64,000 bases of DNA from Escherichia coli (lineage in GTDB: Bacteria; Pseudomonadota; Gammaproteobacteria; Enterobacterales; Enterobacteriaceae): the NCBI RefSeq assembly GCF_036507355.1, contig NZ_AP027877.1; one strand, given 5' to 3'. Numbering within the stretch: the first letter of the stretch is position 1; each line of letters opens with the position of its first letter. The translations under genes were made by a program, and so were the position numbers. Under the pieces are notes generated by a model, which was given only the letters and a program-made list of their open reading frames with translations, was not told where the DNA came from and did no database searches. Of this stretch, positions 2,458-24,330 are shown in pieces.

Positions 2458-3096
2458 TCAAGATTTAATAACATTTACTACAGATTTGAAAATATCGGTT
2501 TTGCGTGATTCATCATCTACATGGATAAAGGAAACGAGTTTCCTGCCTGCTTTAATCAGGATACCGCGTTGCGTCTTTTCCACAGACGGGGTAACGTGTG
2601 CAGATAACAGACAATGTTCATGTAAATGAAGAAACTTTTTTGAGGCGTAGCCGCCATGTAATCGGGCTTGAATGTCAAGATACATATCATCAAGAGAACC
2701 GGGTTCTCCTGATTCACTCAATACCGGATAACCCTTCTTATCAAAGAGGTTAAGGATAGATTTACTATCATGTTCGAACAGGGTAACACCGTAAATGTAT
2801 TTCATTCGAAAGGTGAGGGAATCGGTGGTGTAGACCTCCTCCTGACGATTGAAATTTTTGAGACGCCTGGCTAATTCATTAAAAACAGCACGAGCAGTAG
2901 CCGTGTCCTGCAGGGTGTAGGTATAAAGTACGAAGCCATCTGTGCCGATGAGCTTTACTAAGTTGTCCATAATCGTGATAGCGAGAACTAATGCAAAGGA
3001 TAGATATTTTTCATCGTTGTCTACAGCTGTGTTTGCTGCTTCAGGAAGAATGTTCAGTGCATTATTAGCATTATTTGCTGTGTTCTTAGTAACCAT
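2458..3096 (-). CDS. Hypothetical protein, 212 aa, between the Xis-like gene and piPolB
   Basis: ORF track; start overlaps the stop of the upstream Xis-like gene by 11 nt; same strand as piPolB; no recognisable motif. Confidence 0.55.
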   Translation of the reverse strand: MVTKNTANNANNALNILPEAANTAVDNDEKYLSFALVLAITIMDNLVKLIGTDGFVLYTYTLQDTATARAVFNELARRLKNFNRQEEVYTTDSLTFRMKYIYGVTLFEHDSKSILNLFDKKGYPVLSESGEPGSLDDMYLDIQARLHGGYASKKFLHLHEHCLLSAHVTPSVEKTQRGILIKAGRKLVSFIHVDDESRKTDIFKSVVNVIKS

Positions 3097-3286
3097 TTAT
3101 ATCACCTTTAAGTTTGTTTTGACGATGTGCATTTTCCCACTCAACAATATCATCAAGAGAGAATCGTATAGCCCGCCCAATTCTGATGAAGGGCGGGAGT
3201 TTTCCGGGGTTGCGCGATATATCTGACGCAACCGTGGATGCAGAAAGATTAAATCTTTCTGCGAACTGCTTAATGGTTAAATACAT
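3086..3286 (-). CDS. AlpA/Xis-like helix-turn-helix excisionase or regulator, 66 aa
   Basis: Small basic protein MYLTIKQFAERF...RIGRAIRFSLDDIVEW typical of AlpA/Xis-family HTH proteins; sits immediately downstream of the integrase on the same strand. Confidence 0.6.
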   Translation of the reverse strand: MYLTIKQFAERFNLSASTVASDISRNPGKLPPFIRIGRAIRFSLDDIVEWENAHRQNKLKGDINGY

Positions 3287-3436
3287 AAACCTCCGGTTTC
3301 AGAGAATAAGAAGCCACGCGGATTTAATATCAATCCACATTCTGTGATGACTTAATGCAGGGCCCTGCAGAAGCATGCAATGACAATACCGTCCTTAAAC
3401 GAGTGTTGCATCAATCACGAATCACAGATCATAGGT

Positions 3437-4564
3437 TCATTTTGTGTCATAACTTTCTATGACCTGAGAAACCACTGCGTGTGATGTCGCTGCATTGTGA
3501 AAAGCGTAGCGACGGGTCGCCGTGAGTGAATGGTGATTTAGCAGATGGGAAGCGATTGCAATATCCCCGGTCGCCTGTAGTACCCGGGTGGCAAAGGTAC
3601 GGCGCAGGTCATGCATCCGCAGGTTATCAATGTTGGCATCCCGACAAATACGGGCAAAGGTTGCACGCGGATATGCCAGAGGGCGGGCATTGTCGGTTAG
3701 TTGTGGAAAAATGTAAGTTTTGCTGAGCATCAGGTCCTGCTGGCACTGGACAACTGCAATGGCTGGAAGTGCAAGTGGGCAGGTGAAAGGGTGTCCGGAC
3801 TTTGTATCAGGCAGTATGAGTTGATGCATATCCGGGTGCCAGTACTCCCATTTCAGGGTACATACCTCACCAATACGCATCCCCGTATAAAGAGCAAGCA
3901 ATATAGAATCAGCTGCCGGTGTTTGCAGCGCTGTTGCTGCGTTAATAAAGCGCGGGATTTCTGTCGCTGACAGTGTGCGATAGCGAATGTTATTTTCTTT
4001 CAGATAGCGGACATGTGACATCGGGGAATGTGTGATCCATCCAGCACGTACTGCCAGAGAGCATATTTTGGACAATATTGCGAGGATACGGTTTACTGTT
4101 GACGGACGTAATTTTTCCCGTAAGCCAGCAGCATATTGTTCTAGTTCTCCTGCCGTGATGTCGCGAAGTTGCCGCTTGCCCCAGAACGGGCGAACGTAGA
4201 GGTTGAGTTTTGACAACTCTGACTGAGGACTCTTTTTATACAACTGCAAATCCGGTAGCCACAGGTCATTGATGGCCTGTTCCACAGTGAATCGACGGGA
4301 CTGAACAGCAAGGCGATTTTTATCGGCAAGCAGGTTCATCACATGCTGACGGGCATCCTCAATGCAGAGATGAGGGAATTCACCCAGTGTTTCATATATA
4401 CGTTGATTTTTGATGGTGGCGCGAAAGGCCAGCGTGATCCGTTTTGGATATACCAGTGCACGCAGGTTTTGGCACTGAATATCACGGTATTCCTGACAAC
4501 CCGTGAGGGGATGTGGAAGTTGGTGAATTGATTTGTTGCTGAAACGCAGATCCAGAATAGGCAT
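3437..4564 (-). CDS. Tyrosine recombinase / phage-type integrase, 375 aa
   Basis: C-terminal catalytic signature: TGMRIGEV (Arg), MHDLRRTFATR (HxxR), LLNHHSLTATRRYAFH (catalytic Tyr). Confidence 0.9.
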   Translation of the reverse strand: MPILDLRFSNKSIHQLPHPLTGCQEYRDIQCQNLRALVYPKRITLAFRATIKNQRIYETLGEFPHLCIEDARQHVMNLLADKNRLAVQSRRFTVEQAINDLWLPDLQLYKKSPQSELSKLNLYVRPFWGKRQLRDITAGELEQYAAGLREKLRPSTVNRILAILSKICSLAVRAGWITHSPMSHVRYLKENNIRYRTLSATEIPRFINAATALQTPAADSILLALYTGMRIGEVCTLKWEYWHPDMHQLILPDTKSGHPFTCPLALPAIAVVQCQQDLMLSKTYIFPQLTDNARPLAYPRATFARICRDANIDNLRMHDLRRTFATRVLQATGDIAIASHLLNHHSLTATRRYAFHNAATSHAVVSQVIESYDTK

Positions 4565-4663
4565 CGTATTTCTCCTGTAAATGACACTGGAAAAATACGA
4601 TGTGAGGTTATAGTCTGCCAGTTACAGCTTTCACAGTTCATCAGGTGAAAAATGCTGATTCGG

Positions 4664-4699
4664 ATATAATGGCAACACAATTCCATGTCGCCATTATAT
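4664..4699. promoter_or_regulatory. Imperfect inverted repeat (ATAATGGCAAC ... GTCGCCATTAT) between ORF 4707-5837 and the integrase start
   Basis: Read directly from the sequence; could be a terminator for the upstream ORF or an operator in the integrase leader. Confidence 0.35.
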
Positions 4700-9302: not shown

Positions 9303-10566
9303 TTCGCTTTACCCAGTGAGCGTTAAAGCTGGAAAACCGATCCTTGGAATGCTACCTACAGGATGGCAAAAGTTATCATTAGAAAAGTGCTTAAATATAG
9401 AGGCAAGAAAGGCATATATACAAGATAATCAAGAGTATGACTTAGTTACAGTAAAGCGCTCCAGAGGTGGCGTAATAAGACGTGAGCATCTTAAAGGAAA
9501 AGATATCTCCGTAAAAAGTCAATTCTATATTAAAGAAGGCGACTTTCTCATATCAAAACGACAAATTGTGCACGGTGCTTGCGGTCTTGTACCTAAAGAA
9601 CTTTCTGGCTCAATTGTATCGAATGAATATTGTGTGCTTACAGGGAAGTCCGGTTTTTATCTTCCTTATATGGAATTTCTATCGGAGTCTCTATATTTCC
9701 AGCAAACCTGCTTCCACTCTAGCATTGGTGTGCACATAGAGAAAATGATTTTTAAGTTAGATAGTTGGTTTAAGTGGCCATTTAATATCCCCCCACTGTC
9801 TGAACAAAAGAGAATCGTTAAAATCCTGTCAACCTGGGATAAGGCGATTTCGGTGACGGAAAAGCTTCTCACCAACAGTCAGCAGCAGAAAAAAGCCCTG
9901 ATGCAGCAATTGCTTACCGGGAAAAAACGCTTGCTGGATGAGAGGGGGGTGAGGTTTAGTGGGGAGTGGAAGAGAGTAAAACTGGGTGCGATAGCCGATA
10001 TGAACAGTGGAGGTACTCCGAAATCAACGGTTGAAGAGTATTATGGCGGGAATATCCCATGGGTATCTATTTCTGATATGACATCTAATGGAAAGTGGAT
10101 TGCTACAACTGAAAAATATCTGACTGAATTAGGATTGAACAGTTCATCCGCAAGAATATATCCAAAAAACTCGGTTCTTTATGCTATGTATGCTTCTATA
10201 GGTGAATGCAGCATTGCTGCTGTAAATTTAACATCTTCGCAGGCAATCTTGGGTATTAGACCAAAAGATTGTTTAAATTATGAGTTTTTATATTTCTATC
10301 TTACATCATTAAAAGAAAAAATAAAACTGCAAGGCCAGCAAGGTACACAGTCCAACCTAAACGCCGGAATGGTTAAAGAGTTTGAACTAGACTTACCCAG
10401 TATAAGAGAACAACAAAAAATCGCCGCCGTCCTGTCCGTCGCCGATGCCGAAATCTCCACGCTGGAGAAAAAACTCGCCTGCCTGAGAGATGAGAAAAAA
10501 GCCCTGATGCAACAGCTACTGACTGGCAAACGTCGTGTTAAGGTCGATGAGGCGGTTGCCGAATGA
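9292..10566 (+). CDS. hsdS: Type I restriction-modification system, specificity subunit S
   Basis: 424 aa; two AT-rich target-recognition domains separated by the repeated conserved segment KKALMQQLLTGKKRL / KKALMQQLLTGKRRV; start overlaps the hsdM stop by 11 nt. Confidence 0.95.
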   Translation: MARDSLYPVSVKAGKPILGMLPTGWQKLSLEKCLNIEARKAYIQDNQEYDLVTVKRSRGGVIRREHLKGKDISVKSQFYIKEGDFLISKRQIVHGACGLVPKELSGSIVSNEYCVLTGKSGFYLPYMEFLSESLYFQQTCFHSSIGVHIEKMIFKLDSWFKWPFNIPPLSEQKRIVKILSTWDKAISVTEKLLTNSQQQKKALMQQLLTGKKRLLDERGVRFSGEWKRVKLGAIADMNSGGTPKSTVEEYYGGNIPWVSISDMTSNGKWIATTEKYLTELGLNSSSARIYPKNSVLYAMYASIGECSIAAVNLTSSQAILGIRPKDCLNYEFLYFYLTSLKEKIKLQGQQGTQSNLNAGMVKEFELDLPSIREQQKIAAVLSVADAEISTLEKKLACLRDEKKALMQQLLTGKRRVKVDEAVAE

Positions 10567-23213: not shown

Positions 23214-23537
23214 TTAGAGAAAGACAGGGAAGGCGGAATGATGGCACTGATATGACAAAGTGAATTCCGTATTCAAACATAAGGAACCCGCAAAAAGGCT
23301 ACAGTTGCCTACTGGCTGACCAAAGGGGATCGCGTGGGTATAGCCTTCCTGTTGGCATGCGCGATCGGCGATCCCGCGACTGACATAACGATCGGTATGG
23401 GCATGCTGCAAAAAAGCCTGGTCATAAACCAACCGTACAATACCTGTTGCCGCGTCAACTTCGCTCACATGGGCCTGGCGAGTAACCGTACACCCCGCCA
23501 GCGTTATTAATGAAAGAGTCAGAATCAGAAGTCTCAT
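23214..23537 (-). CDS. yecR: Lipoprotein YecR
   Basis: 107 aa; signal peptide with lipobox LAGC. Confidence 0.75.
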   Translation of the reverse strand: MRLLILTLSLITLAGCTVTRQAHVSEVDAATGIVRLVYDQAFLQHAHTDRYVSRGIADRACQQEGYTHAIPFGQPVGNCSLFAGSLCLNTEFTLSYQCHHSAFPVFL

Positions 23538-23799
23538 GGTCCAGCCAGAAGAGTAAGAGAAAGCACTATTTTACGCGTTACAGCGCTGCGACAATGGCCG
23601 GAAAAGACGCCTGGCAGGCGCTATTTCTTGCCATCTGTAGGTGTCAGAAATAGGGGGGCTGTTTTTTGATTATCATTTTTATAACATTAAAGGGGTATTT
23701 ATGTGATTTGTATCACATAAAGATTGATTTTTGTGATGGTTGTCATATTATAAGCGCAAAGACAATAACACCTGTATAACAAATGGTCGGAGTGCCGCG

Positions 23800-23886
23800 A
23801 TGAAACTGCGCAAAATCCTGAAAAGTATGTTCAATAACTATTGCAAGACGTTCAAAGACGTACCGCCAGGCAATATGTTCCGATAA
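23800..23886 (+). CDS. azuC: Small protein AzuC, 28 aa
   Basis: ORF MKLRKILKSMFNNYCKTFKDVPPGNMFR followed by a terminator; below the ORF-track length cutoff. Confidence 0.6.
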   Translation: MKLRKILKSMFNNYCKTFKDVPPGNMFR

Positions 23887-23916
23887 CAAAAAACCTGCTC
23901 CGGCAGGTTTTTTTGT
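23887..23916 (+). terminator. Rho-independent terminator after azuC (aacctgctccggcaggtt + T-run)
   Basis: Stem-loop plus T-run. Confidence 0.6.
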
Positions 23917-24000
23917 GTCCTGATGACGGTGGATGTGACTATCGCTGAAGATGTGAAGCCGCTACTATAACGGCTTTCAAAATGCTATCAGGAGTTTACG

Positions 24001-24252
24001 ATGTCCCAGCCGCTGAATGCCGATCAGGAACTGGTTTCTGATGTGGTTGCTTGCCAGTTGGTTATCAAACAAATTCTGGATGTTCTCGATGTAATCGCGC
24101 CCGTTGAAGTTCGCGAAAAAATGTCCAGCCAGCTGAAGAATATCGACTTTACTAACCATCCCGCCGCCGCAGACCCGGTCACCATGCGGGCAATCCAAAA
24201 AGCCATCGCGCTGATTGAACTCAAGTTTACCCCACAGGGCGAATCCCATTAA
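24001..24252 (+). CDS. yecJ: DUF2766-family protein YecJ
   Basis: 83 aa; synteny. Confidence 0.75.
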
Positions 24253-24330
24253 AAAACCGCTGCTTCAAAAAGATGAGGCAGCGGTTTCTCAAAAACTTCA
24301 TCGGCGCAATGCATTAGCGCCGATGTATGA

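Follow-up and report, generated by a model that had tools for sequence, protein, structure and literature searches.

The segment from 23758 to 23921 on the + strand of the window (the whole 64,000-nt stretch of Escherichia coli DNA analysed here) is, with very high confidence, the E. coli azuCR gene. It specifies a 164-nt dual-function RNA that serves as the mRNA of the small protein AzuC and, as AzuR, as a base-pairing small RNA (sRNA). Sequence identity, anatomy, conservation, coding signature and amphipathicity of the product were observed directly, and no evidence against the identification was found. The locus is already known and the finding is an ordinary one: azuC has been recognized since 2008, is annotated in RefSeq and had its mechanism characterised in 2022 (Raina et al., PMC8915982), and it therefore carries little weight as a discovery. 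Recovery of a real 28-codon gene, below ordinary ORF thresholds, from raw sequence and with exact coordinates nevertheless provides a useful positive control, and the analysis adds that the azuC ORF is one half of the dual-function RNA AzuCR.

Comparison with K-12 MG1655 revealed identity at every base of window positions 23585–23958, a span that contains both azuC (b4663) and the ncRNA gene azuR (b4434). The AzuC translation, MKLRKILKSMFNNYCKTFKDVPPGNMFR, matched the b4663 product at 28 of 28 residues, and the coding sequences agreed at 87 of 87 nucleotides. In the MG1655 annotation, azuC (1987873–1987959) is nested within azuR (1987843–1988001). The promoter, transcript, terminator, protein, yecR-azuC-yecJ-ftnB context, and CRP and FnrS sites of K-12 azuC/azuR (AzuCR, formerly IsrB or IS092) are all identical in the window. 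No difference lies within the gene; differences occur only outside 23585–23958, with the nearest SNPs at 23584 and 23959 and further ones in the flanking genes, which indicates that the host strain is other than MG1655. The AzuC peptide matched the NCBIfam equivalog model NF033642 (stress_AzuC) over profile positions 1–26 of 26, with a score of 75.9 bits against a cutoff of 30 (E = 1.3e-21); Pfam holds no model for AzuC. A 461-nt query around azuC matched 5,419 of 5,426 complete E. coli genomes; in each of the 15 records listed, the RefSeq label under the match read “azuC: stress response protein AzuC”. Within the window, the azuC ORF is single-copy.

The first-pass annotation had proposed an intact 28-codon ORF in this position and named it azuC. 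The ORF proved exact to the base (ATG, 28 sense codons, TAA), and the name was borne out by the exact DNA and protein match to the annotated K-12 gene. Its description as a small protein gene was right but incomplete, since the same 164-nt transcript is both an mRNA and a base-pairing sRNA, with azuR b4434 annotated across the coding sequence (PMC8915982). The accompanying remark that such proteins are easily missed by length cutoffs holds in that the ORF falls under ordinary thresholds, but azuC is currently annotated by RefSeq/PGAP with a dedicated model, NF033642. Coordinates of the locus features are collected in Table 1.

Table 1. Features of the azuCR locus in window coordinates; the strand is left empty where none is given.
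Feature	Position	Strand	Basis and remarks
Reported NarP repressor site, upstream of azuCR (isrB) promoter	23683–23699		K-12 1,988,060–1,988,076 (PMC12266141)
Reported PhoP repressor site	23696–23713		K-12 1,988,046–1,988,063 (PMC12266141)
Reported FNR repressor site	23701–23720		K-12 1,988,039–1,988,058 (PMC12266141); overlaps distal CRP site
Distal CRP site TGTGATTTGTATCACA	23702–23717	+	Pattern search, 0 mismatches to TGTGA-N6-TCACA; centre about -48.5
-35-like hexamer TTGATT	23724–23729	+	Promoter scan; conserved across genera
Proximal CRP site TGTGATGGTTGTCATA	23732–23747	+	Pattern search, 1 mismatch; centre about -18.5, overlaps spacer and -10
-10 hexamer TATTAT	23746–23751	+	Promoter scan; 16-nt spacer; ends 7 nt before transcription start
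AzuCR (IsrB/IS092/azuR) transcript	23758–23921	+	164 nt per paper; RefSeq azuR b4434 ends at 23916 (159 nt)
FnrS pairing site CACCUGU	23769–23775	+	25–31 nt upstream of ATG; complementary to FnrS 5' end GCAGGUG
Shine-Dalgarno GGAG	23789–23792	+	7 nt before ATG; GGAG or GGGG in 50/50 sequences (49 species loci and the window)
azuC CDS	23800–23886	+	ATG 23800, 28 sense codons, TAA 23884–23886; family match, K-12 identity, cross-genus conservation and codon periodicity
Predicted AzuR seed segment	23846–23871	+	AzuCR nt 89–114, codons 16–24; local duplex scan, in silico pairing with cadA -16..+10 and galE +17..+44
Intrinsic terminator / sRNA 3' hairpin AAAAAACCUGC-UCCG-GCAGGUUUUUU and one more U	23888–23914	+	Fold; conservation

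Homologues were sought in one genome per species with a degenerate DNA pattern that covers the N-terminal residues only, which returned at least 50 loci, 49 of them enterobacterial among those listed. The remaining one of the 50, in Clostridium ragsdalei, was rejected as a chance hit to an unrelated 45-aa ORF. The E. coli type strain, Shigella and Salmonella are not among the loci listed, from which nothing is concluded about absence of azuC from Salmonella. The loci belong to about 20 genera overall, including Escherichia, Citrobacter, Enterobacter, the Klebsiella oxytoca group, Raoultella, Kosakonia, Leclercia, Cedecea, Buttiauxella, Siccibacter, Franconibacter, Silvania, Superficieibacter, Pluralibacter, Intestinirhabdus, and Dryocola. 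An alignment from -150 to +157 relative to the ATG, with identity measured against the window, demonstrated a conserved block at 23702–23916, flanked on both sides by sequence of about 0.35 identity. Conservation peaked at the CRP half-sites, the -35 and -10 elements, the FnrS site, the Shine-Dalgarno motif and, highest of all, the terminator.

The promoter region follows this pattern. The half-sites of the distal CRP site are conserved across genera; the proximal CRP site was found at the matching position in all 50 sequences (the 49 species loci and the window), and the -10 hexamer in 49 of the same 50. A sigma-70 promoter with two CRP sites drives azuCR, and through the site lying over the -10, CRP represses transcription when glucose is absent. 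CRP repression of azuCR has been published (PMC8915982), and the two-site geometry, with one site overlapping the -10, fits it. A 2025 study additionally reported FNR, PhoP and NarP repressor sites (PMC12266141), which we placed by coordinate arithmetic from K-12, the window being identical to MG1655 over 23585–23958. All three lie just upstream; the NarP site is not conserved across genera.

A post-transcriptional input is located in the 5' UTR. Read from both sequences, the FnrS pairing site forms six Watson-Crick pairs and one G-U pair with the FnrS 5' end, and compensatory mutations have established pairing at the corresponding position (PMC8915982). Under anaerobiosis, the FnrS 5' end pairs with 23769–23775 and prevents AzuC synthesis. 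The motif CACCTG[CT] is present in 38 of the 50 sequences (the 49 species loci and the window), in 35 of them as the fully complementary CACCTGC, and absent in 12. Most genera carry CACCUGC with full complementarity, and the CACCUGU of E. coli leaves one G-U pair. Escherichia albertii has ACAGAUA in place of the site, which appears to have been lost there.

The transcription start mapped in K-12 (1988001; PMC8915982) corresponds to window position 23758. The same paper places the azuC coding sequence at transcript nucleotides 40–126, and the start at 1988001 combined with the RefSeq CDS gives 43–129, a discrepancy of 3 nt. Two other readings of the segment were set aside: a 48-aa frame from TTG 23740, merely the earliest start that the frame allows, which would begin upstream of the mapped start, and a 48-aa antisense ORF at 23743–23889 (-), for which there was no support.

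Published experiments on the identical K-12 gene are the source for the translation of AzuC, for its membrane localisation and binding to GlpD, for the repression of cadA and galE, and for regulation by FnrS, CRP, FNR, NarP and PhoP. As an mRNA, AzuCR has its GGAG/ATG at 23789/23800 and yields the 28-aa AzuC, which is proposed to recruit GlpD to the membrane. AzuC is described as an amphipathic inner-membrane peptide that binds and activates GlpD and is proposed to promote GlpD binding to the membrane (PMC8915982). The peptide itself agrees with this description: over residues 1–21, its helical hydrophobic moment is 0.55 with a peak at 95–100 degrees, a value reached by 0.44% of shuffles, and its net charge is +6. 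The AzuC helix is amphipathic and suited to membrane association.

As the sRNA AzuR, a segment within the coding sequence would pair with two mRNAs, with cadA close to the ribosome binding site and with galE inside the coding region, repressing both, and the overlap of coding and pairing regions would set translation and pairing in competition. In the published work, AzuR represses cadA and galE by pairing at these two kinds of position, the pairing region lies inside the azuC ORF, and translation and pairing interfere (PMC8915982). We compared both targets in a 28-nt windowed duplex scan against shuffled AzuCR. [quoted passage not shown] The predicted energies, -24.2 kcal/mol for cadA and -19.8 kcal/mol for galE, lie within the shuffled range (means of -20.3 and -19.7 kcal/mol, respectively), and the exact pairing nucleotides 23846–23871 are our own prediction, consistent with the published region. 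No extra synonymous-site conservation was found in the predicted pairing segment: third-position entropy, averaged per codon, was about 0.78, versus about 0.66 in the rest of the ORF. With third-position variability no lower there, the riboregulator role has no detectable cross-genus footprint.

The shuffled-range duplex energies and the freely varying synonymous sites would both be expected if the locus were only a small-protein mRNA, the reading implicit in the first-pass annotation, with the sRNA activity an overexpression effect that lacks physiological importance, at any rate outside Escherichia. Among the genera that keep the peptide, several, such as Citrobacter and many Enterobacter, typically test negative for lysine decarboxylase; cadA could therefore not be a universal target, which points the same way. 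The published repression assays, moreover, mostly used plasmid overexpression (PMC8915982). We nevertheless consider an mRNA-only locus unlikely. Compensatory mutations in cadA-gfp and galE-gfp, which support both pairings, restored repression; expression of cadA-gfp was higher in a chromosomal azuCR deletion; an RNA with a stop-codon mutation still caused the galactose growth defect; and AzuCR co-immunoprecipitates with Hfq and ProQ (PMC8915982). According to a review, ProQ alone is required for the pairing activity (PMC12612679). The cross-genus invariance of the terminator also fits the 3' end of a chaperone-binding sRNA. In the published tests, translation of the ORF, GlpD-related phenotypes that track the peptide, and compensatory cadA and galE mutations all supported the dual-function model (PMC8915982).

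Across genera, the terminator is conserved more strongly than any other part of the locus, at 0.945 identity, above the ORF. The first-pass annotation had given the ORF a terminator of its own, and the fold confirms it: an 11-bp hairpin at 23888–23913, with a T-run to 23914, begins one nucleotide after the stop codon and folds with a dG of -18 kcal/mol (z = -6.05; 0 of 200 shuffles folded as well). It is kept in 48 of the 50 sequences (the 49 species loci and the window), and in an 18-genus consensus fold it is the only strongly supported structure, with 10 contiguous pairs. A simple terminator scanner did not report it, an omission probably explained by pairing of the flanking A-run with the T-run. 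The element is symmetric (an A6 run, the stem, and a T7 run) and could act in both directions. Its near-invariance would fit a role that depends on the sequence itself, for instance binding of Hfq or ProQ. In Intestinirhabdus, a compensatory stem change from CCUGC/GCAGG to CGGC/GCCG was seen by eye. Outside the terminator, AzuCR had no significant stability in the single-sequence fold (z = -1.84) and no conserved structure in the 18-genus consensus (covariation term -0.06); the rest of the molecule resembles an open mRNA. The transcript matched no Rfam 15 family, and AzuCR appears not to be represented in that release. Two sub-threshold Rfam matches were rejected: rsmX (+; 23.4 bits versus a gathering score of 56), at chance level, and STnc370 (-; 33.4 bits versus 54); both rest on the terminator hairpin.

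The neighbours are yecR (23214–23537, -) and yecJ (24001–24252, +), between which the first-pass annotation had correctly set the gene, and beyond them lie ftnA, yecH and tyrP in one direction and ftnB and araF in the other; this gene order is shared with MG1655 and strain WCHEC020031. Linkage of azuC to yecJ on the same strand was found in 44 of the 49 species loci listed, and yecR neighbours azuC in Escherichia alone. What is conserved is therefore the azuC-yecJ pair, a possible sign of co-regulation or of a functional connection, and the pairing could hint that YecJ, an uncharacterised DUF2766 protein, acts in the same pathway. In most loci outside Escherichia, about 2.5 kb separates yecR from azuC, a segment that is absent in E. 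coli. In one Citrobacter sp. locus (2533–4685), this gap holds a 222-aa ORF and a 478-aa ORF, the latter with many hydrophobic segments and, judged by its sequence, resembling a membrane transporter. On the other side of yecJ, the yecJ-ftnB intergenic region differs from MG1655 at 24257–24326 by an apparent indel or diverged block, and it contains a hairpin resembling a bidirectional terminator (aaaaaccgctgc...gcagcggttt).

The position of yecJ 3' of azuC, maintained while the yecR side varies, raises the question of whether the azuCR transcript is a leader of yecJ, through read-through or attenuation, rather than an independent gene. The spacer from the terminator to the yecJ ATG is short (59–92 nt in most placeable loci) and not conserved in sequence, and a consensus scan found no + strand promoter in 23917–24000. 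A leader function is very improbable all the same: the transcript stops at an intrinsic terminator that is strong and highly conserved, Northern blotting shows a discrete ~164-nt RNA (PMC8915982), no anti-terminator alternative is predicted or conserved, and a spacer of 59–92 nt can hold an independent promoter. For this last reason, we dropped the notion that the shortness of the spacer forces transcription of yecJ by read-through.

The 3 kb around azuC contain 50 ORFs of at least 20 aa, so that by length alone a 28-codon ORF does not stand above chance; with length uninformative, the case rests on K-12 identity, the family match, codon-periodic conservation and published experiments. An intact ORF of 27–28 aa is present in 48 of the 50 loci among those listed, and residues 14–24, which lie outside the pattern constraint, are almost invariant, the unconstrained part reading YCKTFKDVPPG.MF. 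Over codons 12–27 of 48 distinct sequences, nucleotide entropy was 0.12 at the first, 0.19 at the second and 0.74 at the third codon position, and pairwise comparison of the same set counted 4,274 synonymous versus 1,959 non-synonymous codon differences. Third-position wobble together with the synonymous excess indicates purifying selection on the translated peptide. One homologue, in Enterobacter sp. EA-1 (from position 9983 of its locus), has an altered C-terminus and a length of 34 aa (...DVPPRALCSDDKKTC), which fits a frameshift at about codon 24; either a pseudogene or an error in sequencing could account for it. AzuC production has been documented by tagged-protein detection, ribosome binding, and antiserum detection of the untagged protein (PMC8915982).

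That the locus is only a non-coding sRNA with a chance ORF, as the abundance of short ORFs, its first description as the sRNA IS092/IsrB (PMC8915982) and the ncRNA annotated over it in MG1655 might suggest, is effectively ruled out by the codon-periodic conservation and the published protein detection, to which the intact ORF with near-invariant residues across ~20 genera and the Shine-Dalgarno motif kept in every sequence can be added.

With the dual-function reading retained, what is mildly new concerns its evolution: the breadth of peptide, promoter and terminator conservation in the Enterobacteriaceae, a pairing segment under no additional constraint, and the conserved azuC-yecJ adjacency. 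Since the predicted segment varies freely at synonymous sites and cadA is probably missing from some of the genera that bear the peptide, one may tentatively imagine that AzuC and its CRP-controlled promoter are ancestral to the ~20 Enterobacteriaceae genera and that the AzuR riboregulator is a recent, Escherichia-specific addition. We regard this scenario as conceivable, if rather doubtful; were it true, azuCR would offer a tractable case of an mRNA that gained an sRNA function.

Like AzuCR, SgrS/SgrT of E. coli combines in one short transcript a base-pairing sRNA and the mRNA of a small membrane-acting protein of carbon metabolism. SgrS/SgrT has distinct regions for coding and for pairing, and its two products target one pathway (PtsG), whereas in AzuCR the regions overlap and compete and the pathways are partly different; the two share no sequence relationship. 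Spot 42/SpfP of E. coli and VcdRP of Vibrio cholerae are, like AzuCR, CRP-repressed dual-function RNAs, but their sequences, targets and partner proteins differ from those of AzuCR: SpfP binds CRP, and VcdP acts on citrate synthase. VcdRP also keeps its coding and pairing regions separate, unlike AzuCR, in which the pairing region lies within the reading frame itself.
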